DNA of 64,000 nt from Azolla caroliniana (taxonomy: Eukaryota; Plantae; Polypodiophyta). Position numbers and translations under genes: made by a program. Below, piece by piece: positions 3,053 to 53,200 of the stretch. Below the pieces are notes generated by a model that made no database searches, had not been told where the DNA came from, and saw only the letters and a program-made list of their open reading frames with translations. The stretch spans positions 11,408,001 to 11,472,000 of the forward strand of contig JBHGNT010000006.1 in NCBI GenBank assembly GCA_043228905.1, read 5' to 3'. Position 1 is the first letter of the stretch; each line of letters starts with the position of its first letter.

Positions 3053-5399
3053 ATATTATTATATGTACTATACTTCTAGCTCTTCAAGAATTAGAGTATT
3101 AGTGCGCCATGGTGAAGGGCATGCATTCCTTGATACCATTAACCCGAATTAGAGTCAGAGCATATACATTTATAGGTATCTATTGTATCTATGTATCTAT
3201 ACATACATATAAGTAGATAGACGAACATATATACATATATGTTTATGTGCATGATTTACGTATATACATTTATATGTGTGTGTATGTACTGTACATCTAT
3301 AGTGTAATTGCAATGTACGTCTTATGTATAAGTACTTAGGTGTATACATGTATCTATAAATATGGATGTCACTAACGTGGATTAGTGGTGTTGATTTGTC
3401 ACCATCTCAATCAATCACAAGCTCAAGTGGTCTATTTTAATAACTACTCATTAAGGCAAGTACTTCCTTCTTTTAGGACATCATTGCATGCTTCCAAAGG
3501 TGAGACGAAGACATCAAACAAATTAAGGATGGCAAAGACAACCAACACCCATCTAATGCCGTAATTGACGCATTGAAAGGTAACTAGATTTGCCTCGATC
3601 TCTTGTAAACTCTCTTTATTTCTTTATATTCACACATATCACGATACGTTAAGATATTTAGTAGTTTGTATACACATATAATGACTAGGAACATATGTCA
3701 TGAGACATCAATAATCAAGTATTAGCACATCCTGTGATATCTTAGGGTGTTTCCTTATTTGTAGCGTTGATTAAGGACAAGGAAAATGAAATTCATGCCA
3801 TGCTAAGCCTTTGAAACGTCTCCATTGAAGAGAGGTGGTGATCATTCAGGTTAAATCTTTTATGTCTCATCCAATTATTAAGTATTGGAACATCTAGTGG
3901 TACGTTAGGGTACTAAGACGGCTTTTGTGTCAAGATACACATTTAAACATTCAAAAATAAAATATTAAAGACGTCTCTTGATATGTGAGGGCGTTTCATT
4001 TTATTCGGAATGTTTATGAAGCTCAAAGAAGAAAGTGAAAGGAACATTTTTGAGATTAAGAGTTTAAGAGTTTTCTAAATGTCCACTTTTGAGGAATTTT
4101 AGGAATTTTAAGAGTTTTGATGGGGTTTTTGTAAATGTGGGTTTTGTAGAGTCTACGGAATGTGGGTCTTTTAGGGTTTTGAGGGCCTTCCTGATTACGC
4201 GCTTTTTTATGTTCTTAATGTGCCCTACATTGATTTTCTGCATATAGGATTCTATGGTTTTGGTTGTTCCGAATATGGATTTTGAGGGATTTGAAAGTTT
4301 TCTTAATAGATATTTCTAGGGATTCAAAGCGTCAATGTTCACGGTACAGATTTGATGCTTATCTCATACCAGAATTTCTAGGAACGTTCGTACCTTTTTA
4401 GGACATCATTGCATGCTTCCAAAGGTGAGACGAAGACATCAAACAAATTAAGGATGGTCATATTCGTATTACTTAAAAAGAGTAACTTAAATGTTGAAGG
4501 ACATCTTGATTAGAAATTAATGATACAACAGTGGTTGTTAATGCATGCCTATTTCATTTCATGTCCATACGTGATGCTTATATCTTCTTGTGAATTGAAA
4601 TATGTGGACAAATAGCTAGAGCTATTGATTTTGATCAAACATGTGGTGAAAGCACATCAACTTTTATTTCATGAAAGGGCCTGCTAAGAGGTAAACTGTT
4701 TTGGTGTCTGTCAATGATATAGCTAACTTTCTTGGCTTCGTCCATTTGTATATGTTATGCTTTATTTTTCCCAAAATTCTGAAGCATGTTGGTAGCGATA
4801 AGATGGAACCCTGTTTCTTTTGAGGAAAGGCACTTCTTTGGAGTTGGTGATACTCTTTTAAAAATGTAAGCACTGGTGTTCTGTTTTTTCAAAGAAAAGT
4901 GAAGAGTAAAAATACGATAGATCGACTTATCCATTCCCATAAGTCCTGAATACGGTCAGAATTAGAAGCCAACCAAGACATGTACAAATACTCCCAATTT
5001 GTCCGGACTATTGTTGTGGAGAGCCAACTCTATAGGATAAAGTGAGAAGAGAAACAAAAAATATGTTCATCCTCGGATGTCTCATCCAATCTGAGAATAC
5101 AAGAATGTTAACTTCCATCTTAGTAGTTCAAATAGAAGGTAACTAAACACCATGGGTTGCTGTCATTGTGGGGCTGTTGAGTCATTACTTTTCAAAAATA
5201 TGAATGTGAATAAGTCACTTTGTTTTGTGACTTATTCAAAATTAAAAACTTATTAGCAGATATGTCAGTTAGATAGTTGAATTATATCCATTATGAGGTT
5301 AAATTTCATATAACGTAATCTTTTGCATCTTCTATTTCTTATGAACAATTTCCCATTGTTAAATCGAATGGAAAAAGAAAAAACTACCCTTATAACTTT

Positions 5400-11801: not shown

Positions 11802-12108
11802 AACAAATTCCAAAGAAATCGTGCACATTTCAAAGGATGACCTGTGAGTAGAAGCTCCTCCCGAGGATTCCTCTCTCTGCATCATGAGAATAACAAGAAC
11901 CTCTCAACAGACAAATATAGCTCTATGCCTAGTCCATCAGAAAGTAGAGTGGACTAAGCATAGAGCTGTCTGGTGGACTAAGCGTAGAGCTATATCCGTC
12001 TGTTTAGAGGTTCCTGTGATTCTCATGATGCAGAGAGAGGAATCCTCGGGAGGAGCTTCTACTCACAGGTCAGCCTTTGAAATGTGCATGATTTCTTTGG
12101 AATTTGTT
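11802..12108. repeat. Long inverted repeat / foldback hairpin (~135-bp arms)
   Basis: 11802-11936 is the reverse complement of 11974-12108, with about 10 mismatches; 37-bp spacer. Confidence 0.95.
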
Positions 12109-35511: not shown

Positions 35512-37544
35512 ATAGCCGAGCTGTCAGATGCAGGAGTCAAACTTCTGATACCACATCCTCAACGCTTGTTTTAAGCCATAGAGGTTTTTCTTCAGTCGAC
35601 ATACGAGGAGACCTTCTTCCCTCGTCGCCGTGAAGCCTACCGGTTGAGACATGTAGATGCCTTCTTCCAGATCTCCATGTAGAAAAGCCGTCTTGACGTC
35701 TAGCTGCTCAAGCTCTAGGTCCTCTGTCACCACGACTCCGAGTAGGAGCCAAAGGGTGGTCATCTTGACTATTGGTGAGAATATCTCGTCGTAATCGACC
35801 ACATGTTCTTGTTTGAATCCCTTCGCAACAAGCTGAGCTTTGTATTTGGGTGGCTCAGAGTTGGATACATATTTGTACCTGAAGACCCTATGCAAGGTAG
35901 CAACTTCCTTCCCACTGGTAGTTCGACCAACTCCCATATTTGATTCTGTCGACTCGAGTCCATCTCAAATTGCTGATTCGGCCCGATGAGCTGGTCTTTC
36001 GACGATGTCTCTGTTGATTTCGAAAGAGACCTTTTGCCCCACTATTGTCAGTTGGTTCCGTTCAAAGAGGATAGAGCCTTCATTGAAGACTACATCACTG
36101 CTCCGGATCAACTTCCTGTTCTCTGGGTCCCATAGCCTGTAGCCGAATTCCCCATTGGTTCCATAATCGAGTAATATACATTTTGTTGCATAGGGTGCCA
36201 ACTTGGTCCTCTTCTCCCTAGGGATGAATGCATAGACTTCGCATCCGAATATACGAAGTCTATCATAGGTCAGATGTTTGCCTAACCATAGTGCCTGTCA
36301 AGCGTGATTGCTTTCGATGGCGATAGATTTATCGGGTAAACTGCCGTCTACAATGCTTCGACCCAGAACTCCAACTTTAGTCCGGTTTGTTGAAGCATTG
36401 TCATCACCGTCTCTTGGATTGTTCAGTTGAACCGTTCTGCCACTCCATTTTGCATGGGTGTGTATGGAATGGTCTTTTGATGCCGGATCCCTTTATTAGA
36501 CAGGTACTGTTTGAAGGCCGTGGAGGTGTATTCACCGCCATTGTCGGATTAGAGTCTCTTCACTTTGTATCGCGACCGGTTCTCTACTTCAACGATCCAC
36601 CGAGTGAAGATCTCGAGCGCTTCGTCTTTCGACCTAATCAAGTAGGCCCAAACCTTCTGTGTACAATCACCTACAAATGTGATGAATTATCGGGAACCAC
36701 CTAGTGATCGCTCAAGCATAGACCCACATATATATGTGTGAACGAGCTCTAGGGGTTGTCATACCGTCTCATAATAGAGAGAGTGTGGACTTCGGGTTTG
36801 TTTCCCGTATCGACAAGTCTGTTTTTGCTTGGAGTTTCGAAATGTAGCCAACCGCCAGTATAAGAGTAAAACATGTTAAAGGGGTTGTGGTATATGTGTA
36901 ATGTATATGAGTGTGAGTGAGGATAAATATGTAATGGTCTTCTTTTGCAATGGTCACATTATGTAACCGTTCCAATATGTACTATATAAAACCCCTATGG
37001 GGTATGTAATGAAATATAGATTTTTCCCTCCCATTTTGTGTCAGACTCTCATTGTTTCTCTTTCCTTCTCTCTCTCTCTCTCATGTAACCCCCTTGGGAG
37101 GGGGGTGGAGCCGTTGATGGATTCAACCCCCACCCAATAACACCGATCGAGTCCAACTTGAGACATATGGCCGAGTCGGCCATGCCATAGTTTCGGGTCA
37201 GTCTTTTCGCCTATGTTCCCGGCCCCTTTTGGATTGATCGCTATCATTGGGAACAAGTTGTTGTACTTGTGCCCACTTCTGATTCTTAGGTTTCTACGAC
37301 TGATCATCCATGCCGACTCATTGAGAGTCGTTCGGCTAACATGCCGATGGAGACTAGACTCCTCTTCAGATCGGGTATGTGCTGAACTTGGTGTAGGGTG
37401 ATCATGTTGCCATTCGGCAGTCGGATGGGGACCTCTCCAATCCCTGCGATTATGCACTCCTGCCCATTGCCGAGTTGGATTGTGTCGCTGGGTCGGTCGA
37501 ATAGTTCAAAAACCATTCGATGTTTGGGTTCACATGGAATGTGG
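35512..37544 (-). mobile_element. Ty1/Copia internal relic (PR, GAG-pre-integrase, INT, RT) hosting nested insertions
   Basis: [54 protein letters not shown] and NLYGLKQA motifs. Confidence 0.9.
36757..37142 (+). repeat. Solo-LTR-like insertion (386 bp)
   Basis: TGTCA...TAACA termini and TATA ctatataaaa at ~36982; interrupts Copia coding sequence; flanks GGGGT/CCGAT do not match. Confidence 0.75.
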
Positions 37545-38229
37545 TGTTAATCCTGAGCCGGATTAGCCACTAACACAGGGTGTCCTTTCGGATCACTTCA
37601 CCAAAGGGGTGGTTACGGGGTTAATGCTTCCGGCTGAAATATAATAAGTTCCGACTATTTCCTGATCAGTTCCGGATTGACAACATACCTGGATTGATTA
37701 CATGCGTAAGATGAGACAATAAGCATAGAACGGAAAGTACGTGGGTACAGAATAAACTCAAAGACAACTTTACTTATATTCATTCCGTCCCGTAATACAT
37801 TGTTCTTCGGATCCTTTTATAGGCATCTGGTTCAGCCAGGTTGCTTGTTTTACCGGTCGGATGAAACCGACTCTCAGCAGCTTATCGATTTCATCCTTAA
37901 CTCTTGTTGCATAGTTTGGGTTCATCCGGTAATGTCGCTATGCCACCGGCTTCGCTTCCTTGCTAAGGTTGATCTGGTGTAGGTACAATTGGGGATCCAA
38001 TCCTTCCATATCCTTATATGACCAGGCGAACACATCTTGGAATTCTTTCAACAGTTCAATCATTGTCCTTTTCTCTTCCTGTGGTAATTATTTTGCCGCG
38101 TTCATTGGTTTCAACACTCCATCGATACCGAGGTCCACCTTTTCTAATTGAGATGCCTTCACTCGTTGAGATACCACCATTTCCTGTTCTACCGATTCTT
38201 GTGCCTGTCGCAGTTCCCGGATGGCCTCC
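37545..38229 (-). mobile_element. Older non-chromoviral Gypsy, 3' piece (RT start fused by deletion to a partial 3' LTR)
   Basis: Minus strand reads DVFAWSYKDMEGLDPQLY..RMNPNY..KLLRVGFIRPVKQATWL; 37545-~37825 resembles the 3' part of the young element's LTR. Confidence 0.88.
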
Positions 38230-38648
38230 TGTTACCGGCCGGCAAGAAGTCCAAAATACGGAGTGAAGGAATTAATTAAGTATGGTTGTAAATAAGCATA
38301 GTATGGACGGACGGACTGGAAACGGTATGCCGTTCCAGATCCGGACGGATCCCGAATAGGTGCGATAGGCACCGTTTTGTACTACGGACCGGAAACCTAT
38401 TTAAAGGCCCGGAGCCCATTGTAATCGCAGCGGATAATTAATAGAGCGTATGGTGTTTATACTTCTGTGTTGATTTCCGTTCTGTACTTACTGTTATATC
38501 TTACGCGTGTAATTAACAAAAGAGCTCTAATCGTGTAACCTACTTAGGTCGGTGTAATCATTGAGTCATAATCCTATGCCGTAATCACCCTTTGGTGAAG
38601 TGTCTCCGTGACACCTTGTGTTAGGCCTTGTCCGGTCAGAGAACAACA
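38230..38648 (+). repeat. 5' LTR
   Basis: TGTTA...CAACA; TATA-like ctatttaaa at ~38397. Confidence 0.97.
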
Positions 38649-38654
38649 CAGTTT

Positions 38655-38664
38655 TGGCGACCAC
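38655..38664 (+). promoter_or_regulatory. Primer binding site TGGCGACCAC, probably tRNA-Arg(UCG)
   Basis: Begins with TGG 6 nt after the LTR; complementary to ...GTGGTCG-CCA, the 3' end I recall for plant tRNA-Arg(UCG) (not checked). Confidence 0.7.
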
Positions 38665-38701
38665 GATTCCTGCTTTCTCGCAGCGAACGACGGCTTAATG
38701 G

Positions 38702-41700
38702 ATGACGAGACCAACGCACGACCTGGTTACAGACCGAGCTCGACGCCTCGCCGAACGGCAAAGACGGCGTGAGACTTTCCAGCAAGCAACGCACGAAATT
38801 CGCTCGGATCGTTCGTTCTCCAACGAGATCCGGAGAGTTGCGGAGGAATCTCTTCGGTTACAGCAAACTCGCGACCAGGACGACGGAAGCGGTCTAAGTA
38901 GTCTCCGCGAAACCGAACGCCTCCTCGAGGCGCTGGCAAGCGGAGAAAACGAGGCAGAAGCCTTTTCAGCCTACGAATCGGATTCCGAAGGGGGATACAA
39001 CGTGCACACGAACTACCGGAGCAGCAACGATACCCCCGGCGGCCCGGAGGACGACGGGTCGGATACCGTGCCGACTCCAGAACCGGAACCGTTCGACCAG
39101 GGCTATCCGGAACCGCAAACGGAAGCCGTCAACCCACCAACACCGGAAGTGGAAGAAGCAAAGCCACCAACACCAACGAAAGAGCCGGCGAAGGTACCGG
39201 AAGAAGAGCCGGTGAAGGAACCGGAAAAAGAACCGGAAGAGGAACCGGAAAAAGCACCAGCAAAAGAACCGGAAGTGGAACCGGAGAGAAAACCGGAAAG
39301 ATATCAACAAACGCCACTAAACCGCGGCCTAATACTGGACGACGACATGCCGTTCCAATACTCAAAGTATCGCGATGATCCGGACGCGGAAGCGCATGTT
39401 CATGCCTTCGAGCAGACATGGGAAGCAAATCACGCGTCCCAGCGACTGACACCGGAGGAAGAAGAACGCTCGAAGATAGCGGAATTCGGGGTCACGTTGG
39501 AAGGACCAGCGGCACGATGGCGGCGGACGCAGGACCCGGCGACCATCACAACCTTTGCAGAATTAAAAGCAAAATTCTTGCATTTTTTCCACAAGGAGGT
39601 CGACCAGACGACAATGGTGGGCCTGTTTTATACGATCCGACAAGAGGCAGGGGAAAGCATTCCCCAATTCGTCATCCGTTTCCAACGAATGCATAGCCAG
39701 CTTGCCCGTGCACCCCCGGAGGAGGAATTACGGACGATATTTTTAAACGCACTCCGGGAACCGTTACGCACGGTGTGTACGGTGATCGACTTTCAAGGAA
39801 GCACCATTGACCAGGTCATTGACCGGGTCAGAGAAATGGAAAAGTCAAGCTCATGGCTTACACTGGGAGCACTGCAACGGGCGTTACCCACCGATGAAGA
39901 TCTCCGGTTCCGGCAGGCAATTCAATGCACAATCTGCTTGAATGCCGGACACTCGGCAGTGGAGTGCACCATGCGAACCCAGTGTGTGATTTGTCAATCC
40001 AAGAGTCATACAACGGACCGGTGCGAGTATAACCTGTTAAACCGACGAGCACCACCCGTCCGACGGATCGAGCCAAGAAGCAGCCGAGACGAAGACGAAG
40101 ATCGTTGGCAAAGAATGAACCGGTACCGACCGGCACAGGATGTCCGGTACGGAGACAAACAAGAGAATGATGGCCGGTACGGGGATCGGCATGATAACTA
40201 CGACCGGTATGAGCGATCGGACCGTTATCGGGAGTCCAACAGACGACACGAGCAATACGACAGAGACCATTCCCCTGGTTACCGAAGGCACCAGGAGGAC
40301 TACGACCGATGTTACGATCCACCACGACAGGACTACCGAAATAAAAATAAGAATAATAAGAAACGTAATTTCAAGAAAGGTGGTCACACTAGGGACCCGG
40401 AACATGGAACCCCAAGGAGCCAACCGGCACAAAACGCACCACTCACTACGGGACCGACTCCGGCTACCAGCAATGCTGAATCCAGCAATACCCGTAAAGA
40501 GTACTGCTACTACTGCAGGCAGGAAGGCCACTACAGTAACCAGTGCCCGGCAAAGAGCTACGATAAACGACCAGCAGTTAATATGGTGGTTCCGGAAGTG
40601 GCGGATGTACAACAAGTAACCACACGGTCGAAAGGCATGGCCAAAGAGTGGGAAACACAAGAGGCCATACGAAAATAGGCGACGGAATGGGTGAAGGAAG
40701 CCAATGAAAGGAACGTCGCGGACTCGGAACGACAAAAGGCGAATACCATAGGGAGTGCCGGCGGTAGCCACACAGAAAACGAGACATGGCAAGCACTGCA
40801 AGAATGTCAGATCACGTTGCCATTAGGAAGACTCTTGCAGCTCGTGCCGCGATTTACGGAAGGACTAAAAACGGTCATGACAGACGGTATAGCCCCACCG
40901 GCACCAGTCCTCTTCTCGAATCCGGAGGAGGGACCGACGGTGGTGGACACTAGTAGTCCGGTGATTACAGCTATTGTCAAAGGGCACGAACTTCCCGACA
41001 CAGTAATCGATGGAGGTTCCGGGGTGAACGTAATAAGCCTTCGCACGTGTGATGCCTTGGGTATACATGAATGGGAGCCATGTCCGTTCTGGCTACGGAT
41101 GGCGGATACGAGCTCTGTACGGCCGACGGGCTTAATACGGAAATTGGAGGTCACCATAGGAGGTCACACATTTCACATCTCGGCTGTAGTGCTGCAGCTA
41201 CAGGCGCAAGGCGCGTACCCACTGTTGCTGGGCAGACCATGGTTGAAAACAACACACATCAAGCAAAATTGGCGGAAAAATATGATTACCTTCCGGCGCG
41301 GAAAAGCCAAGGTCCGGGTACCGACACAACCACGGACGAGCAACGGTAAGGAATGCACACCGCTGTATGCGGAATGCGTGAACATGCTTGAAGGGTTGGC
41401 AGACGACGAAGAAGCCCAGTACTTGGAGGAACACCCGAAGATCGTACCACTCTTCGAGATTGACGTAGCTGAAGCCGTAGCGCCATACTTGCCGCAGTGG
41501 GACGAAACCGAAGCCGAACCAGACAAAGATTCGATTCGGGAATTACGGCAAGCACAGGAAGCGTTGGAACGGGAAATGGCCGTTTCCCAACGGGTAAAAA
41601 CATCCCAGCTCGATGAAGTGAACCTAGGAAGCAAGGACGAATCAAAGCCGGTACACATCGCCAAAGAAATGAAGCCGGAAGATAAAGCGGCGATGATCAA

Positions 41701-44584
41701 ACTTCTCACGGAGTTTCGCGACGTATTCGCCTGGTCATACGAAGACATGCGAGGGCTGGACCCTCAATTATATTAGCATCACATCCACTTAGGCAAAGAC
41801 GCGAAACCAGTGGCGCAAAGACGTTACCGAATGAACCCCAACTACGCCGCCAAAGTGAAGGAGGAAATCGACAAACTCCTAAGAGTGGGCTTCATCCGGC
41901 CGGTAAAGAAAGCGACGTGGCTGAGCCCCATCGTCGTCGTCCCAAAGAAGAACGGTAAAATCCGCGTGTGTGTAGATTACAGGAAACTAAATGCAGCCAC
42001 AATTACGGATGCATTCCCTCTTCCGTTCACGGATGGAGTACTGGATGCCGTCGCCGGCCGTGAAGTTTATAGCTTTTTAGACGGGTTCAGCGGATACAAT
42101 CAAATCCGGATGCACCCTGACGACCAGGAGAAGACAACGTTCGTCACTGAATGGGGGGTGTTTGTGGCCGTAGTAATGATGTTCGGACTAAAAACGGCAC
42201 CAGCAACTTTCCAGCGAATCATCATGGAGATCTTCGGCGAATACATTCCAGCCTTCATGCAGGTTTTCCTGGATGACTTTGCAGTCTATAGCCGGGAAAA
42301 AGACCATTTGCAGCACCTACGGTTATGCCTTGAAAAGTGTAGGTTATACCGGCTAAGCTTAAACCCAGCAAAATGCATCTTTGGGGTTTCAAGTGGAATA
42401 TTACTGGGACACATTGTAAGTAAGGAGGGCATTGCGGTCGACCCGGACAAAGTAAACGCGATACTAGGGGCACCGGCGCCGAAAACGGCCAAAGCACTAA
42501 GCCGATTCTTAGGACAGATCCGGTGGCACAGCCGGATGCTCCGTCACTTGGCTGACTTGGCTACACCATTACACACCGCGGTACATCGGACACCGTTGCA
42601 ATGGACGGATACGGAGGATAGGGCATACAATGCCCTGAAGGTACTTTTGTCACAAGCACCCGTCGTGCAGCCTCCGGATTGGAGCAAGGAATTTCATGTG
42701 TTCGTCGACGCTTCCGACATCGCTATCGACAGCGCCTTAATGCAACTTACGGAGCCTAAATGGTACCGGCCGGTATATTACGCTAGCCGGAAGCTGTCCC
42801 AAGCGGAGAAGAACTATTCGACGACGGAACGGGAGGCCCTGGGCATGATCTACAGTGTAACAAAGTTTCGTCATTACCTATTGGGAAGGAAGTTCTCCTT
42901 TCATGTGGATCACTCGGCGCTCCTGTACTTAGTGTCCAAGGCGTCCCTGACCGGTAAGTTGGCTCGTTGGACCTTGCTGTTGCAGGAGTTCGAATTCGAG
43001 ATCTTCCACCGGCCTGGTATCTAGCATGCCGTAGCAGACTACCTGAGCCGGTTAGAGTCCGGAGAATCAGGCGACGGAGTATCGGATGAATTCCCGGACG
43101 CAGAGTTATTCCGTATCACCCCGGAAACGGCAGCGGACGACACGGTGGCATCAGAAGATAGGTGGCTGACAAACATGCACCAGTTCCTAAGCACGGGCCT
43201 GCCACCGGAGGAAATGAACCGGGACGAGAGGAAACGACTGGCGGTGCAGAGCCGCAATTTCTGTCTGTTACGGGACACTCTCTACCACAAGGGAGCAGAT
43301 GGAATATGGAGACGGGCAGTCCGTAGTGACGAGAAAGAAGTAATCTTACGGGAAGCACACTATGGGGTTGCCGGAGGACACTATGCCGGGGAAGCGACGG
43401 CAAGGAAAGTATGGCAGAGCGGCTTATGGTGGCCCACGACGTTAAAAGACGCCGTCAAGTATGCTAAGGAATGTGACCTATGCCAACGAATGGGCCAGCC
43501 TACGGAGCAAGCACGGATGCCACACCAACCGGTACTTCCACTAGAGCCATTCCAGAAGTGGGGGTTGGATTTTGTCGGACCGTTCAAGCCACCGGCAATG
43601 AGAACGGGTAATCGTTATGTCATCGTGGCAACAGATTATTGCACTAAATGGGTGGAGGCTAAGGCCTTGAGAGACAACACCGCGTCATCCACAGCAAAAT
43701 TCCTGTACGAAAACATTTGGTGCCGATATGGATGTCCGATTGAATTAATCAGCGACCAAGGAGGGCACTTCCTCGGCCAGGTAGTTGAAAGCTTAACAAC
43801 GTTCTATGCCGTGGTCCATAAACGGAGCACACCGTACTACCCACAAGCAAACGGGTTAGCAGAGTCAACCAACAAAACGCTCCAGAACATTCTCCGCAAA
43901 ATCGTCAATGAAAACCGGACGGATTGGGATACAAAGCTCCATAGCGCGCTATGGGCGTACCGAACGGCATACAAAACAAGTATCCGGACAACGCCGTTCC
44001 GGTTAGCGTTCGGCTTAGAGGTGGTCATGCCGGTGGAATTTCAGGTACCAAGCTTACGGATCCAACTACGGGAACGGCTGAATGAAAAGGAGTCGGAGGA
44101 AATGCGGCTAGCAGCACTATGCGAACTGGAGGAGCAACGGCTGGCCAACATCCTACACATGGAACTGGAGCAACGACGACGGAAAGCATTCGTTGACCGT
44201 CACCGGAAAGGTAATGAAAAGATGTTCGAAATCGGAAAGCCGGTGCTAGTATTCCAAACGAGGATGGGCAAGATGCCGGGTAAACTCCAGTTTAGATGGA
44301 CAGGCCCGTATTGGCTGACACGGGAATACAACGGGTCCTATCAGTTAGGGACACTTGCCGGTGAAGTGCTAGACAAGTGGGTCAACGGTTTTAGACTAAA
44401 GCCCTATAAAGGACCGATGCCAAGTAACCCATTTATGCAGCCCACCGGCACTATACCGGGAACCTGTCCGGGAACGGTACGGATGGAAGAAAAAGACGAC
44501 GGGGAACCCGTAGCAGAGGCGAAGGAAGACACGGCAACCCGTAAGGAAAACGGTAAGGGTCCGAAGGGACCTACGGATGTGTAA
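38702..44584 (+). CDS. Gag-Pol polyprotein in a single frame, interrupted by 3 TAG codons (40676, 41774, 43022)
   Basis: Gag with three CCHC knuckles; protease VIDGGSGVN; RT FLDGFSGYNQI and FLDDF; RH VDASD; INT WGLDFVGP, SDQGGHF, YPQANGLAE, WTGPY; no chromodomain. Confidence 0.93.
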
Positions 44585-44963
44585 GATCACATACCGTCAT
44601 TTATAAAAAAAAAAAAAGAAAAGAAAAAAAAAGAAATCATTAAAAATCGAGGTATGAACGGACGTGAAAGCAAGGAGCGAAAAGGTACGTAGTGGGCATT
44701 TAAGAGCCGCCACATTACTTAATACTAAATTGGTACACGACGTGCGCATGCTCGAAAAAGGCACCAAGACGCACAGAGAAAAAGCAGAACGCATGGAGAC
44801 CTTTTCATTTCGCGAGCCAAGAAGCACAGAAGCACCAAGGCGGTTGAAGCTTAGCAAACGCGAACCTGCACTCAGAGAACCCCCACGTTCGGAACTCTCT
44901 CTCTCTCGCTCTCACTCTCATCACCACTCTACCTCGCCATCTTTCCTCGACCTCGAAGCAGAC

Positions 44964-47633
44964 ATGGACCCACAAACGCTGTCGGAAGCGGCCAGGAAAT
45001 GGCTCAGGCAACACGGACTGGATGGGTTCTTGACCATCATGGAGGCACCACCGCACAAAGAAGCCGACCGGGTCATCAAGGAGCTCGACACAGAAGTCAT
45101 CACCGAGGAAGCGATCCGTGCGCTAACAGGCCTTCCGGAGGGAGGTATTTTTCAGATCGATAACCCAACCTCGGAGCAACTCATCCGATATTTCGGTGAG
45201 TACTCTCTAGCCGGCAAAGGCTATCGAACGCAGGGCGGCGAAGATCCGCTATTCAGGGAGATAGCTCGAGTGCTCCATGAGTATGGCCACGTGTACCCCC
45301 GACCCCCTGTCATGCCAAAAAATCGGGCAGGGATGATCATAGCCACCTATGAAGGGATCAAGGTGGATTGGCCGGTGTTGATTGCAGACGGTTTGTGCGC
45401 GGCAATCGACACGGTACGAGGAAAGGACGGCAAGGAGGGCCGGAAGCTGTGGCATGCCGTAGCTCAGTGGATAACATTGCTCGCGCCGCCAGTCGAGACC
45501 GTCCAGCCAAAGAAGCGGCCAAGATTATCGGAAGGAAGCACCTCGAAACCTGCGTCCAAACGACAGCAGCTGCTGGCGTCGAAGGCGACGAAAGGGAAGA
45601 AACGGCTCCCAGAACCGGAGGAGGTGTCACCGGTCCGACCCGTTAAGATAACGATACGGCGACCGGGACAGAAGGAACCGGAACCCTTGACGGCACAGAT
45701 ACATGCCGTTACCCAGGAAGAGGAAACGGAGGAGCCAGTAGAGCACCTCCAACGACGGTCAAGAAGTAGGACCGCCGGGACAGCGGGGGAGCGTTCGGAC
45801 CCGCAAAAGGAAGAAACGCCCCCAACTCAACCTGAGCAAACCACAAGGGAGGAACCAGAACCGGTGCGTATAGAACCGGCCTTGTCGACTTCTATACAAG
45901 AAGTCATTGCAACGGCTCCGGAGACGGCGAGAACCGGAACTCAACAGCCGGCGAGCCCAGCCAACACACACAGCGGCCAAGGAGTAGAACCAGAACGGCA
46001 GATACAGGCACTCAGGCCAGACAATTCCACAGTGAACGAGCCGACCCGACCAGTACAGCAGCAAGGCACCAGTAGCATGTGGCTACGGTGGGTAGGCGAG
46101 CAGATCGCCGGAGCGGTCGAGTACATAGAGGCGGAGGAGAGAGCGCACCACGAACGGTTGCTCGTCACAACCGTAGATCTAGAGACGGCCTGGTCCAGAA
46201 TCCGGAGCCTTGAACAAGACTTGGACAGGGTCACAAGGGAAATGGCTCAATTGGCTTTGACAACACAAGTCCAAGCACCGGTGACTCCGGGCAATGTACA
46301 GAATAAAGCGTCAGATCAACCTGTACATAGCAATCAGACCCCGGCAACGGAAACCGTTCCGGAGAGAAATGCGGCACAAGCCCAAGAGCTTGCGGACTTA
46401 AAGGATGAGCTAGCTGCCCAAGAAGCACTGAGGAGCCGCGAAAGAGAGTTGAAGACGGCAGCGGAGGCAGAACCCAAAAAGACTGCTGAGAATCTACGCC
46501 GGGCCGAGGAGAGCTTACGAAAAGGCCACCAAGCGTACGACCGGCTCAAGGAGGAAAAGGAGAAAATGCTGCAAGAGAAGGACAGGCTCCGGAGAAACGC
46601 CGAAACAGAAGTAGAGCGCCTGAAAGAGGAACTCCGGCAGCTAAAGGACCGGGAGGACCGGAACCATCGCCAGATCAACGGCAAGCTCAAACAAAAAACG
46701 GAGGAATTTGAGCACTTGCACCGGGAGTATAAACGGTTGCAAACGGAGCACAAGGAACGGACGGATGAGCTCCGGCAAGCAGTTGATCGGACCGCAACGG
46801 CATACGCTAATGAACAAGTGGAAACCAGAAGACGGTTGGAAGAGGCGGAGAAGGTTCGGACAGAGCTCCTCAGGCAACAGCAGGCGGAAAGAGAAAGAGT
46901 GGCGGAGGTACTGCAGAGGCTGCAGACAACATATCAAGGGCAGCTGACGCGCTATAGAGAGCAGGCGGAGGATACGGCTAATCTCATCAAGCAGTTGAAG
47001 GAGGAACGACAAGTTGTGGAAAGTAGAGCGCAAATGGGAGCAAGTCGCATCCAGGATATCATGCGGGCCTGGTTGAACCAGACCAAGAGCTTGATTGACA
47101 ACGGTTCCGTCAAATGGTGGACCAAGTGGGCCCCGAACGCGGCGGAACTCCAATTGCTCCGGGCCGACGTAGAGAACCGGCGGAAGGAGGGAGATGATTG
47201 CTATATGCTGACTTCCGAAGACTTCACCGGCATAAGAGATGAGCTGGTCGAAGACTTTCAAGCCTTGGCAGAGGACCAACTAGGGCAAGTCCGGCAACTT
47301 GTAGCTCAGCTGGACGACGACAGGCTAGAGGCGCAGATCCAGTTTGAAAGCTACGAGAGGTCCCGGATCCGGGAAGAGAAAGCACGAGAACCAGTAACGG
47401 TCAACCTCAGTGATGAGGAACCGTTACTGGAAGGAGACCGGACCGGAAGCAGTCAAACGGGGATGCCGGAGTCAGAGAAACAAACGGAGCAGCCGCCTAT
47501 AGAGCAGCCGGAGCAGTCTCAGTCCCAACCGCAACCACAGCAGCAGCAGCAAGCACAGCCGCAACAACCACAACCGGAAGAACAATTGGAAACTCTGGAA
47601 CAAAGTATTTTGGACAATTTGGGTGAACAATGA
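44964..47633 (+). CDS. Extra retrotransposon ORF3 (~889 aa): globular N-domain, basic NLS-like motifs, disordered linker, long coiled coil, Q/P-rich tail; function unknown
   Basis: Uninterrupted frame 44664-47633. The likely start is ATG 44964, after a CT-rich leader; upstream in-frame ATGs also exist. Confidence 0.85.
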   Translation: MDPQTLSEAARKWLRQHGLDGFLTIMEAPPHKEADRVIKELDTEVITEEAIRALTGLPEGGIFQIDNPTSEQLIRYFGEYSLAGKGYRTQGGEDPLFREIARVLHEYGHVYPRPPVMPKNRAGMIIATYEGIKVDWPVLIADGLCAAIDTVRGKDGKEGRKLWHAVAQWITLLAPPVETVQPKKRPRLSEGSTSKPASKRQQLLASKATKGKKRLPEPEEVSPVRPVKITIRRPGQKEPEPLTAQIHAVTQEEETEEPVEHLQRRSRSRTAGTAGERSDPQKEETPPTQPEQTTREEPEPVRIEPALSTSIQEVIATAPETARTGTQQPASPANTHSGQGVEPERQIQALRPDNSTVNEPTRPVQQQGTSSMWLRWVGEQIAGAVEYIEAEERAHHERLLVTTVDLETAWSRIRSLEQDLDRVTREMAQLALTTQVQAPVTPGNVQNKASDQPVHSNQTPATETVPERNAAQAQELADLKDELAAQEALRSRERELKTAAEAEPKKTAENLRRAEESLRKGHQAYDRLKEEKEKMLQEKDRLRRNAETEVERLKEELRQLKDREDRNHRQINGKLKQKTEEFEHLHREYKRLQTEHKERTDELRQAVDRTATAYANEQVETRRRLEEAEKVRTELLRQQQAERERVAEVLQRLQTTYQGQLTRYREQAEDTANLIKQLKEERQVVESRAQMGASRIQDIMRAWLNQTKSLIDNGSVKWWTKWAPNAAELQLLRADVENRRKEGDDCYMLTSEDFTGIRDELVEDFQALAEDQLGQVRQLVAQLDDDRLEAQIQFESYERSRIREEKAREPVTVNLSDEEPLLEGDRTGSSQTGMPESEKQTEQPPIEQPEQSQSQPQPQQQQQAQPQQPQPEEQLETLEQSILDNLGEQ

Positions 47634-47685
47634 AGGGGCCGAGAAGGGTTCGACGTACAAGGTACTGTCCCACGGGCGTGCCATG

Positions 47686-48104
47686 TGTTACCGGCCGGCA
47701 AGAAGTCCAAAATACGGAGTGAAGGAATTAATTAAGTATGGTTGTAAATAAGCATAGTATGGACGGACGGACTGGAAACGGTATGCCGTTCCAGATCCGG
47801 ACGGATCCCGAATAGGTGCGATAGGCACCGTTTTGTACTACGGACCGGAAACCTATTTAAAGGCCCGGAGCCCATTGTAATCGCAGCGGATAATTAATAG
47901 AGCGTATGGTGTTTATACTTCTGTGTTGATTTCCGTTCTGTACTTACTGTTATATCTTACGCGTGTAATTAACAAAAGAGCTCTAATCGTGTAACCTACT
48001 TAGGTCGGTGTAATCGTTGAGTCATAATCCTATGCCGTAATCACCCTTTGGTGAAGTGTCTCCGTGACACCTTGTGTTAGGCCTTGTCCGGTCAGAGAAC
48101 AACA
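47686..48104 (+). repeat. 3' LTR
   Basis: Matches the 5' LTR except aatcAttg/aatcGttg; followed by TSD CCTCC. Confidence 0.97.
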
Positions 48105-50280
48105 CCTCCTGATCCGGCTCGTCAAATCTTTCCTCTGAGTGCACGACATACGGTGTGACGGCTTCGGCGACATCTACCTCAAATAACGGTACTATCTTCA
48201 GATGTTCATCTAGGTACCGGTCGACTTCGTCGTCTGCTAATCCATCCAACATGTTTATGCTCTCTGCGTATAGCGGTGTCAGCTCCTTATTGGTACTTGT
48301 GAGTGGTTGGGTCGGTACCCGCACTTTCATCTTCCCTCTTCGGAAGGTAATGACGTTCTTCTGCCAATTTTGCTTTATATGCTCCGTCTTTAGCCATGGT
48401 CTACTTAACAGTATGGGATAAGCTCCCAACGCGTTGAGTTGCAAGACTACCGCGGATATCCAGAATGCATGCCCACCGATTGTAATTTCCCAGTTCAGGA
48501 TGAGTCTGGTTGGCCGAACCAAATCGGTATCAGCTAGAATGGGCAGGGTTCCCATTCTTTGATACCAAGGGTGTCGTAGGTTCATTGGTTTATCATGTTT
48601 ACTTCGGAACCTCCATCTACAATTGTCCTGGGTATTTCTTTCCCTTTGATGATAACCGTTATCGTTGGATTGTTGGTGTCCACTATTGCCGGTCCTTCCT
48701 TCGGGTTGGAGAAGAATCATGATGCCGGCTCCGGGTTTTTTGATGTTACCACCGATTTAAGTCCTTCCGTGAATCGGGGAACTAATTGCAACATGCGACC
48801 TAGGAGCAACATGATCTGACACTGTTGTAACGCGTGCCAGGTGGGGTTGTTGTGCGTGCTCCATATTGGTTCCTTTGGAGGCTGGATCTATTCTTTCACG
48901 TCGGCCTCATTCCATTGATTTTCTTTCTGTATTCATTCAATGGCTTGCTTCGTGATGGCCTTCTGGGTCTCCCACTTGGCAGCTTTTCCTTTGGATCTTG
49001 TTGTGACTTGTTGAACATGCATCACCTCCTCGGTCACCATGTTTACCGTCGGCTACTTCTCATTGTTCTTGACCGGGCACTGGCCACTGTAATGTCCCTC
49101 CTTTCGGCAATAATAGCAGTACGTCTTCCGGATGTTGCTCGATTCTCCTTTTTCTATATTCCCTGGCAGCATACCAAAAGTCATCTGATTATTCTCTTCC
49201 ATCCTCCATTGCTCTATTTGCGCCATGGCCGCATTTGTACCTAGCTCCCATCAGTACTCGCTAGTTGGTTCCTGACATTCTTCTCGACGATACTTACCCT
49301 TACGGTTGTGACAACGGTGGTTCCGGTGCCCTTGGCGTTCCGGGTACAGATTATACTCACATCGGTCCATAGTATGTGACCGGGAATGACATAACATGTA
49401 GTGCGTCCTCATTGTGCATTCTAGTGTGGAATGTCCCGGGTTCAGGCACGTTGTGCATTGCACTGTTTGGTGAAATCGAAGATCTTCTTTAGGAAGCACT
49501 CGTTGGAGAGCCCCCATGGACATCAAGGTACTGCACTTATGCATCTCCAAGACCTGGTCAATGACTTGATTCATAGTGTTGGTCCGGAAATCCAGTACCA
49601 CACACATTGTTCGGAGGGGTTCCCGGAGTGCAACCAAAAATATTGACTTCACCTCATCTTCCTATGGTGCTCGAGTCAGTTGGTTGTGCAACATTTGGAA
49701 CCAGATGGTAAACTGTGGGACAGTTTCCTGTTGCTCCTGATACGTCATGTAGAATTGGCCGACCAACTCTCTCAGTTCTACCTGTCGGTGGAACAATCAC
49801 AAGAATTTAGTTTTGAGGGCGTCGAATGTGGCAAAGCTACCGGGTAGGTTCTTTGCATGCCACCGTGTTGCCGGTCCTTCTAGTGTCATGCCAAATTCTG
49901 TGATCTTGGAATGTTCGTCTTCTGCGTCCATCAAGCATTGCGAGACATGGTTAGCTTACCATGTTTGCAAGAAGGCATACACATGGGCTTTTGCGTTGGG
50001 GTCATCTCGGTACTTTGAGTATGGGTATGGCATGATGTCTTCTTCGGAAGGGTGCGTTGGGGGTGACATTGGTATCCAATCCTCTTCTAACTCTGGCTTC
50101 CAGTTCGGTGGTGGCATTGGTATGCGATTGTTCTTTTCCTCAGATTGGCGGTCTGGTGGTAGTGTTGTTCTGTGCTTCGTCCTTCCCTCCGATTGTTGGT
50201 CTTGGTTTGACTTGTGGACCGACAATGTGGGTAATGTTGTTTCTGAATTTGGTGTTGGTTCGTGCTCCGAACCATCTTTT
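48105..50280 (-). mobile_element. Older non-chromoviral Gypsy, 5' piece (gag and protease), degenerate
   Basis: YSKYRDDPNAKAHV, LREPLRTMC, CTTCLNPGHSTLEC and GAYPILLSRPWLKT align with the young element; the frame joins 38229 across the TSD (EPDQE|AIRELRQAQE). Confidence 0.92.
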
Positions 50281-53200
50281 AGAGCTTCAATGGAGGTTCT
50301 CACTCTCTCTCTACAAGATGCAAGATACAAGAAGATTACGTTACAATGTTAGGGTTGAGCTTTTATACTCAAGCCCTAGTTCAAGGACATGTTCACACTT
50401 AGGATACAAAGTGGAAGGAGTCGGCCTTTTATGCCAACAAAGGGAACCACCATCCACAACTTAGAGGTGTCGTAGTGTTCGTGATTGGTACGCAAAACCA
50501 TGGGTGTTATGAATGAGGAGAGTTCATAAAAGAAAGATAATGTAAGATTGAAGGAGTAGAATTGAGAAAATATATAAAAATATGTTCTACTCTAATTGAA
50601 AATAGAAGATTTTATTTACCAAACTCCAGCTCAAACAAGTTCGGGAGTTTGAGTATCATTCACATTCAATTATGCTTTCAACACATGTTCGATTGAACCC
50701 AATTCTTGCATGGGTTTCCCTCTTAGTTGTATTGTGCACTATCAATTGCGACATTTATTAATAAAGTTCTTGATTATCAAGAGTCGCTACTCACTTTCAC
50801 GTGTATTATGTGAAAATGTTATATTTTGGTCTCATAGGTCATATTTGACCTTGGAAGATTATATAAAATCTATCTATCATCTCTCACCTCATTAAGCCTT
50901 GACCAAAATTCTAAGTTTCTATCTTAGGTATTTGAGTTATATCTTATATATGAGTGTGCTTGATTTAATTTAACTAATAAGAGTGTTGTTGGTATATAAA
51001 TTTCTTATATTTTCTTTAGTTAGGTAACGAATTTGCTAGTTTTGCGAATGTAGGTTAAGCCTTTCATTAACACATTTACATTTGATCACCTAAACTTCAT
51101 TGTGACACTTTGGCGAGGCACATTTTTGTTGTATGTTATGTAGATGAGATGGCCATTTTTACTTGGCAATGAGCCAAAATAGACTAGTGTTCAGGATTGC
51201 CAAAGTATTCTCAAAGTCATGGTATATTTTATGGTGAGGGAGGCTGAAGCAAGATCTAGATGTTGAAACCCTCAAGGAGACCAATAAAAGGACAATGGTG
51301 ACCAACAACAAGCTTCAATATTTCGTTTTATAACTATAATTATTCCATAAATATTGTGGACGATATTTATGGTAGGCCCAAGCAACAAGGTAATAAGGAA
51401 AATGAATCAATCTTAACATAAAAATACATCACAATTGATAAGTGTTTAGGGTATAGGATTCATAGATACATATACCAGAATACATATATATGTAATTGTT
51501 AGAAATATTGAGAATTGATTAGATAGGTATATAGAGTTACAACCACAGAGGTGGATATATGAAAACAAAACTTCTATTACATATGAGAGTAGCTCACAAT
51601 GGTAGTTCACCCATGCATTCACACTTTAGAGCTTAGATGGGATCAATACCAGCTCACTACAAAATTAGTGGGGACTGATGATCAATCCAACCACTGTGTA
51701 AGAAAGTGGAGTATAACATTAAATGTGCAAGTCAATTGATAGTAGTGGAGATATTCCTTTTCTGTTAACTGACTTGTCATTTAATATGACCCAACTCCCT
51801 AGATATAGGCTAGTGCTAGATGGTACTTATCTTGAAGTCAATGGCACATACTTCAAGACTAAGTACATCGTAACTTGCCCACAAAATATTCTAATTGACT
51901 TGATTAGCCAATCCTATTACCTATTTCACTCTTTCCTAAATACATTGTGTCCTACGCATCTACTATTTCCTAGATTAACACATTATCGACCCATATGGTT
52001 GAGTTGCACACTAACCGCTCTTCATTTGGGGTGCTATCACAAAATGTGCACTCTAAGAGCATATATGGGGATAGATTTACAACTTCGGGCTGATCATTGA
52101 TTATATCTAACAGTAATGGCATCCTTCTTATACAAATGCTAATATGCCCCATTGTAATTATTGTCTTAGCTCATGTGTACACAAGGTGGAATATGATATA
52201 TTAAACCTCGATCTAGTGGACCATACATTGACTCCCCCATACATATACATGCTTGAATGCAAACCTAGGGCCACATAGGTAACATAGTTGCATCACATAT
52301 GTACCTACATGAATATCCATGACATATATATTTGTATGCAAGTGTGAAAACATGTAGTGTGTGTGTGTGCTCTCTCTCACACACACCCTCTAAAGAAAAG
52401 GTTTAAAATGCCTTAGCACTAGATACAAGAGGTTTGATATCAACGAAGGTAAACAAAGATGTAAACTTCGCTATAATAACTTAGCCCATAGTTTAGTAAT
52501 TTTAGAAGCTAATTGTAGTGATCTATATTGCTTTCATTTGGAGGTGCTTAAGAGGCAATGCTCCATTGACTCAATCCACTGAGCCTCCTTCGAAAATACT
52601 ACCTTGAATAGTGTCACACAAATTGATGAAACCTCTTGGGTTCGGGAGAATGGTGGAGCAAATTTGCATGTATCCATGTGTAGGAGCACATGCCAAATGA
52701 GTGTGCATAAGATAAAGGACTAAAATGAGAGGGAAAAGACAATTGGGATTCCAAAGCAGAATCTCGAACTTGAGACCTCCATGCTCCTGCCACAACTTCC
52801 ATAATATGCACCTTACAATACATACATAATTTCATTCATTCACAAATACATCCACACAAATACTTTTTGTTATACACATTCATGCAAACAATTACTTTCT
52901 ATCATACACATTCAGTTCTATATATATACATACATACATAGATATGCATACATTTTTGTGCCTTTAAATGAACCATAATAAAGCTTCTGTTTCTTTCATA
53001 TTGAGGTGATGACATTATAATCTCGAGCTCAACATTCCCCTATATTAAACCTAGACAAGAAACAAAGCTCCTTCACCTTGCGTTTCTTTCCGAAAGAAGG
53101 CAAAGAAATCGATCAAGGCAATGCCCATGCAATTTCACACATTTTACATATATAGCCATATATACAAATGAGAGAGACAAAGACAATGACAATCTCTCTT

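Follow-up and report, generated by a model that had tools for sequence, protein, structure and literature searches.

Background

Extra open reading frames (ORFs) at the sense 3′ position of plant retroelements have been reviewed (PMC7264820), and the ORF of a sunflower Athila element is described as carrying Transposase_32 together with a nuclear signal (PMC11728184). Extra ORFs that combine a plant mobile domain (PMD) with a coiled coil are reported from Tat lineages IV and V, and none from the spikemoss and moss Tat/Tat-like elements included in that study (PMC4408406). VANC21, an accessory protein of a plant DNA transposon, relieves the silencing of VANDAL21 in trans (PMC5735166) and is structurally homologous to the PMD protein MAIN (PMC13547354); VANCs are described as dicot-specific (PMC5735166, PMC13547354). 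Retrotransposon-encoded control of methylation has been raised as an open matter (PMC12844716), and the role of plant retrotransposon extra ORFs is treated as an open question (PMC7264820, PMC6317226, PMC4408406), for which the ORF family analysed here offers a testable handle. In this study, an extra ORF, termed ORF3, was investigated in a Ty3/Gypsy element located in a 64,000-nucleotide stretch of DNA from Azolla caroliniana (assembly GCA_043228905.1, contig JBHGNT010000006.1, positions 11,408,001 to 11,472,000, hereafter the window). A sequence-only reading of the same DNA had proposed that a young Gypsy element carries an intact accessory gene of about 890 amino acids (aa) with a long coiled coil and signs of its own promoter, and its claims are considered together with the results that bear on them.

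Results

ORF3 and the layout of its protein

ORF3 is sense-oriented, lies between pol and the 3′ long terminal repeat (LTR), extends from 44964 to 47633 without an internal stop and encodes 889 aa counted from the start MDPQ. The frame is free of stops from 44658 onward. The longest stop-free run in 44590-47686 comprised 991 codons; in 500 mononucleotide shuffles it averaged 178 and never exceeded 384. The sense stop-free ORF of the sequence-only reading is thereby confirmed. The protein is divided as follows (strand and basis in brackets).

44964..45497 (+): globular helical N-domain, aa 1-178, in which the YFGEYS..K block is conserved and W136 invariant; VANC21-like fold predicted (alignment and model)
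45510..45605 (+): basic stretch KKRPR...KR...KKR, candidate nuclear localisation signal (sequence)
45669..46067 (+): low-complexity P/E/Q/T linker of variable length (ratio of nonsynonymous to synonymous divergence, dN/dS)
46068..46259 (+): conserved helical WLRW block, aa 369-432 (alignment)
46374..47063 (+): predicted coiled coil, aa 471-700 (heptad periodicity, dN/dS and, in the model, long helices)
47064..47381 (+): conserved C-terminal hairpin of helices that carries the motif W..W...AAELQ.LRAD..NR, aa 701-806 (alignment and model)
47382..47633 (+): acidic Q/P tail and TGA stop (final residues S[IN]LD.L conserved)

The globular N-region, KKRPR motif, low-complexity linker and Q/P tail described earlier were all recovered. 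KKRPR occupies aa 183-187, and the KKR or KR of the basic stretch is retained in the relatives P0001-P0004 and P0008 and is weak in P0155. The claimed heptad-like sequence of about 300 aa was reduced to aa 471-700, where periodicity was supported in three of the five segments tested (p ≤0.007); aa 395-435 and 720-806 were not significant. A conserved feature overlooked in the sequence-only reading is the block W..W...AAELQ.LRAD..NR...G (aa ~718-745), which holds 18 invariant columns among seven sequences with identity down to 32%. The C-terminal hairpin gave no specific fold match and no Atlas match. The highest 19-residue hydropathy, counted from the MDPQ start, was 1.04, indicating that no transmembrane helix is present; the signal peptide and transmembrane helix of a retroviral-type Env were not found in ORF3, in agreement with the earlier statement that the protein is not a true env.

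Synonymous divergence was low at 46068-46373 (0.3-0.66, where the N-domain and coiled coil reach about 2 or higher), which possibly marks a cis-acting DNA or RNA element within ORF3. An overlapping ORF at codons 369-470 was considered as the source and rejected, given that no alternative frame is open in all six sequences.

Predicted fold of the N-domain

Pfam assigned no family to ORF3, and 97 distinct relatives gave only weak unrelated matches; the hidden Markov model (HMM) cut-offs of PMD, Transposase_32, ATHILA ORF1 and Transposase_28 were reached neither by ORF3 nor by these relatives. Sequence searches of the PDB gave nothing significant. The Atlas pointed to PF20167 and PF03078 for the N-region, both at 0.86, as leads only. 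The best match of the predicted N-domain, and the only standout among solved structures, was the DNA-bound VANC21 (PDB 9LNK), with 13% identity. The 167 aligned residues are spread over 253 residues of VANC21, and the core of the N-domain is therefore the more compact. Among viral predicted structures, no match was obtained.

From the structural model, it is probable that the N-domain shares the VANC/PMD fold, and the N-region likely belongs within the PMD/Transposase_32-type fold group. The resemblance to PMD and Transposase_32 modules proposed earlier is made likely by the VANC21 match and the Atlas leads and finds no counterpart at the level of Pfam HMMs. The top match is VANC21, itself homologous to MAIN, and therefore the anti-silencing or chromatin option is favoured among the three roles suggested in the sequence-only reading (anti-silencing, chromatin tethering and particle scaffolding).

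Relatives, selection and intactness

The N-domain search returned 191 clusters at 50% identity, and a profile search returned 199 domain-length proteins; the N-domain matches listed are all from ENA or JGI assemblies, either without a name or labelled 'hypothetical'. The whole layout, including the C-terminal block, is kept in P0008 (1,072 aa; 51% N-domain identity) and P0155 (757 aa; 40%), and the layout persists down to 25-27% overall identity. Among 19 metagenome loci, the family integrase was found upstream in seven and an LTR downstream in five; ORF3 is whole in L006 and L008.

Pairwise dN/dS was calculated by the Nei-Gojobori method with the window copy as the reference; the pairs are not independent and the high dS values are rough. 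For the N-domain, dN/dS was 0.036-0.083 in seven diverged pairs and 0.185 against L001, and four of the 12 pairs were inestimable because of saturation. The values were 0.06-0.12 for the coiled coil, 0.088 for the C-terminal block (one pair) and 0.1-0.3 for the linker, beside 0.038 for reverse transcriptase/RNase H and 0.068 for integrase. The sequence comparison thus indicates unambiguously that ORF3 is under purifying selection as strong as that on integrase and is a real gene of the element family.

The contrast drawn earlier between an intact ORF3 and a gag-pol with three stops carries little weight: the probability that all three would fall in gag-pol by chance is 0.15-0.21, and breaks in sister contigs are more frequent in ORF3 than in gag-pol (12 stops, one of them a natural end, in 7,968 aligned codons, compared with one in 7,309). 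This higher breakage may partly reflect assemblies that collapse the conserved pol. An exchange of ORF3 between lineages was considered for L009, where the pol is 26-28% identical, and was rejected because the LTR of another element intervenes.

Candidate target motifs

CCGG occurs at 13.6 per kb in the element (38230-48104), compared with 1.3 in the remaining window, and CGG/CCG reach 1.6 times expectation, compared with 0.7; L006 is alike in both respects and L008 in CCGG density. The CCGG enrichment gave z scores of 4.4-5.2 against synonymous shuffles but only 2.4 against a second-order Markov model. CCGG is a lead for a target motif, much of which base composition or methylation-linked mutation may explain. 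The literature searched yielded no account of a connection with low CGG methylation in moss, and no repeated 8-mer is common to the relatives compared.

Short tandem arrays were observed in L008 (AAATC and GATCCG) and L009 (AAATC). L009 also contains the LTR of another Gypsy family, which bears tandem arrays of AACCGG-based units and of a 37-nt unit (2740-2997 and 3312-3507); these may have arisen by ordinary slippage or may serve a trans factor as binding sites.

Proposed function and alternatives

By analogy with VANC proteins, we propose, with a probability of roughly 0.4, that the ORF3 product is a VANC/PMD-fold, coiled-coil nuclear factor that would bind DNA or chromatin and loosen the silencing of its family in trans. 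ORF3 would have a subgenomic transcript of its own, expressed from the conserved blocks at 44680-44744, and the protein would enter the nucleus through the basic signal. Self-association of the coiled coil would allow several N-domains to bind together and to recognise short motifs in element DNA or chromatin, with local relief of silencing at family copies. Frequent breakage of ORF3 speaks against a cis-essential role and fits a factor acting in trans; with such action, loss of ORF3 from single copies would be frequent even as strong selection maintained it in the lineage. A bolder version, which is possible yet doubtful, holds that an LTR retrotransposon lineage of a seed-free plant encodes its own VANC-like sequence-specific anti-silencing protein, multivalent through its coiled coil and perhaps reading dispersed CCGG-rich motifs. 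If this version were true, sequence-specific anti-silencing would predate the eudicot VANDAL system and be native to retrotransposons; Gypsy elements would already have carried the PMD/VANC fold before seed plants.

Several points weigh against the anti-silencing proposal. The non-coding DNA of the window copy contains no VANC-type tandem motif arrays. ORF3 is interrupted in 12 of the 16 loci that have a start, whole in two and running off the contig in two (L016, L018 and L019 lack the start and were omitted), which counts against a cis-essential role. Among the 16 best-supported C-to-T-type differences private to the window copy, 11 lie in CHG, a context that makes up 22% of its cytosines; this pattern points to past methylation of the window copy and to strong CHG methylation by the host. 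Such methylation would be compatible with anti-silencing limited to some cells. The fold alone also leaves the direction of the effect unfixed, because MAIN and MAIL1 silence with the same PMD fold (PMC5418596).

The same domains could serve an integration-targeting or nuclear-import adaptor, in which the VANC/PMD-like domain would recognise DNA or chromatin while the coiled coil, together with the C-terminal hairpin, binds the integration complex, in place of the missing chromodomain. Nuclear accessory-type roles have been suggested for extra ORFs (PMC7264820). An adaptor would accord with an integrase without a chromodomain, with the basic signal, with a conserved C-terminal block that suits a partner, and with the position of the window copy inside an older relative (nesting also in L002, L009 and L014). 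However, nested insertions are common in repeat-rich plant genomes, and a protein required in cis is not expected to break more than gag-pol; we regard this adaptor as unlikely. Still less likely is a decoy or recruiter of host PMD complexes that mimics MAIN/MAIL-type proteins through protein contacts and reads no DNA sequence. The failure to find motif arrays and an N-domain that is not basic and evolves slowly, unlike a possible arms race over target motifs, are in its favour, as is the common fold of VANC and MAIN (PMC13547354); but the sole solved match is the DNA-bound VANC21, and genic PMD proteins are documented from angiosperms (PMC5418596).

An env-like, movement or particle-scaffold protein, acting as a coiled-coil structural component in particle packaging or cell-to-cell transport, would explain a sense ORF at the env position, as in Athila (PMC7264820), and about 230 aa of heptad sequence. 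Such a protein is improbable given the lack of a hydrophobic segment, the absence of a match among viral predicted structures, the candidate nuclear signal and a best fold match that is a DNA-binding nuclear protein. We would place equally low the possibility that the N-domain has a fold of its own, resembles VANC21 by chance and serves another role such as RNA handling. The idea that ORF3 is a neutral passenger or a recent capture without function draws on its interruption in most sister copies, but dN/dS, checked on family copies as the sequence-only reading had suggested, is far below 1 across saturated synonymous distances, and the layout is retained at low overall identity. Selection of this kind largely refutes the passenger explanation, which is the most improbable of those considered.

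Start and upstream region of ORF3

The following features precede the MDPQ start.

44599..44636 (+): A-tract (relatives A-rich at the same place)
44680..44744 (+): conserved non-coding blocks GAAAAGG..TAGTGGGC, ATTTAAG (44698-44704) and GTACACGACGTG (44733-44744) (11-sequence alignment)
44793..44963 (+): in-frame N-terminal extension (METFSFRE...RRLK...), probably coding, including the CT-rich stretch (spacing, third-position bias and frame)

In all seven sequences tested, a conserved upstream motif and the MDPQ ATG are separated by a multiple of three nucleotides. Differences in the extension fall mostly at third codon positions (206, compared with 124 and 121 at the others), and no stop occurs in the ORF3 frame, compared with 10 and two in the other two frames. 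The extension is basic and polar in composition, and its RR[LI][KR]V motif is present also in relatives at 35-38% identity. Since the region is in frame and evolves like coding DNA, ORF3 probably starts at or 5′ of the ATG at 44793 and encodes at least 946 aa; an additional in-frame ATG is located at 44748. The earlier size of about 890 aa is therefore correct as counted from MDPQ and probably too small for the whole protein.

Two promoter signs of the sequence-only reading lost their support. The tttataaaa at 44599 is not conserved, occurring in the window copy only among 11 aligned sequences, and the CT-rich stretch likened to a 5′ untranslated region is common only to the window copy, L001 and L002 and lies within the probably coding extension. 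The blocks at 44680-44744 may represent an internal promoter or splice region and are, from their conservation, a better promoter candidate than the TATA at 44599. Eight relatives keep a fuller TATA-like box near these blocks, part of which a 15-nt deletion removes in the window copy, L001 and L002; L012 has CTATTTAAAG, the same as in the LTR.

Structure and setting of the element

The element spans 9.9 kb from LTR to LTR (38230-48104, + strand) and comprises the following features in addition to ORF3.

38225..38229 and 48105-48109 (strand.): left and right copies of the 5-bp target-site duplication CCTCC, on both sides of the element
38230..38648 (+): 5′ LTR, TG...CA, with the TATA-like TATTTAAAG at 38398-38406 (a single base differs from the 3′ LTR)
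38655..38664 (+): primer-binding site TGGCGACCAC, probable partner tRNA-Arg (same sequence in L001 and L006-L009)
38702..44584 (+): gag-pol with three TAG breaks, without a chromodomain or a second RNase H
47646..47685 (+): conserved stretch like a tRNA 3′ end, with CCA at its close and a small hairpin interrupting it, 2 nt upstream of the 3′ LTR (family alignment)
47686..48104 (+): 3′ LTR (pairs with the 5′ LTR)

The two LTRs differ at one of 419 bases, and the element is a young, high-copy plant Ty3/Gypsy element, in line with the earlier reading. A Pfam scan placed Gag, zinc knuckle, protease, reverse transcriptase, RNase H and integrase in one frame and in the Gypsy order. The three stops reported earlier were found as TAG at 40676, 41774 and 43022, at least two of them private to the window copy. 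In the integrase ORF, the Pfam scan found no chromodomain, consistent with a non-chromovirus element. The archaeal RNase H that marks the Tat clade is absent, with a single RNase H region and about 50 codons separating it from integrase. The reverse transcriptase motifs and the spacer at the primer-binding site presumably resemble those of Athila.

An older antisense relative (37500-38224 and 48110-50340, - strand) surrounds the inserted element and is 55-70% identical to it at the aa level in Gag, protease and the start of reverse transcriptase. A plant host is indicated by the presence of the stretch in leaf and plant metagenomes and by CpG depletion of the flanks (0.36-0.45). In the N-terminal half of Gag, a 12/24-nt tandem array at 39179-39299 codes for EEP/KEPE repeats and differs in length among family contigs. 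In L006 (6458-10105), L007 and L008, the order ORF3, one LTR, gag was observed, which corresponds to LTR-sharing tandem elements or to circular assembly collapse. Elsewhere in the window, a 143-nt inverted repeat (11802-12108; 92% complementary, 21-nt spacer) lies beside a 269-nt direct repeat and belongs to a set of related repeats at 3.2-14.2 kb.

Candidate priming sites

The tRNA end complementary to the primer-binding site gave 52 viral-contig matches, 36 of which were called as tRNA at the match, 27 of these as tRNA-Arg; these are tRNAs of viral contigs and the assignment is suggestive only. No polypurine tract adjoins the 3′ LTR, the final 20 nt containing nine purines. The 40 nt preceding the 3′ LTR are 97.5% identical in five loci whose LTRs are only 71-75% identical, and the same stretch also stands before two unrelated LTRs. 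It was seen in L006-L009 and L014 and, reversed, in L002 (2375-2412) and L014 (2186-2223). The stretch resembles the 3′ end of a tRNA-Arg(UCU) gene from a viral contig; the search pattern had been designed for ends of this kind, and its three matches are one tRNA-Arg, one tRNA-Glu and one uncalled. In the inserted 7-bp hairpin, all 56 cells retain pairing, and two pairs show compensation. The tRNA-like stretch with its hairpin takes the place of a polypurine tract and therefore suggests, on sequence grounds, tRNA-type priming of the second strand. An Rfam tmRNA match at 47635 (9.6 bits, cut-off 47) was rejected as chance or T-loop likeness.

Comparison with known systems

No description of the ORF3 family, and no demonstrated anti-silencing protein of an LTR retrotransposon, was found in the literature searched. 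If the ORF3 protein binds element DNA and lifts silencing, anti-silencing reaches LTR retrotransposons; if the host is seed-free, ORF3 bears on whether the PMD originated in transposons or in host genes, a point left open in PMC5418596.

ORF3 resembles the VANC anti-silencing proteins of VANDAL Mutator-like elements (MULEs), such as VANC21, in being a transposon accessory gene and in its predicted core fold, its conserved domain with variable low-complexity regions and its predicted coiled coil (PMC5735166, PMC13547354). It differs in being encoded by an LTR retrotransposon and not by a VANDAL-type MULE, in the lack of tandem motif arrays in the window copy and in the low identity noted above. 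ORF3 is not a VANC member because its host element is the wrong one; by analogy, it likely works like one. The ATLANTYS accessory protein, which resembles ASY2, is likewise a globular and long-helix protein encoded by an LTR retrotransposon, a likeness drawn from its description (PMC13547354, bioRxiv 10.1101/2024.04.02.587720).

The Athila sense 3′ ORF (ATHILA ORF1 PF03078 / Transposase_32 PF20167) shares position, orientation and a predicted nuclear signal with ORF3 (PMC11728184, PMC7264820), whereas ORF3 has no HMM match, no transmembrane segment, a much longer coiled coil and an extra conserved C-terminal block. The extra ORFs of Tat/Ogre lineages III-V are also found in non-chromovirus Gypsy elements and place a coiled coil behind a globular domain of PMD type (PMC4408406, PMC6317226, PMC5418596). 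Those ORFs are described as 3′ antisense or 5′ sense, their elements carry an archaeal RNase H, and they match PF10536; in contrast, ORF3 is sense at the 3′ end, belongs to an element with one RNase H and escapes detection by Pfam. The 'uncharacterised accessory system' of the sequence-only reading is therefore an overstatement, because extra ORFs with a PMD and a coiled coil are already described in Tat elements (PMC4408406). The kind is already known from the Tat elements of seed plants; what is new here is a sense 3′ ORF of probable PMD/VANC type without a membrane segment, invisible to Pfam, in a non-Tat lineage and with a structural pointer to VANC21.

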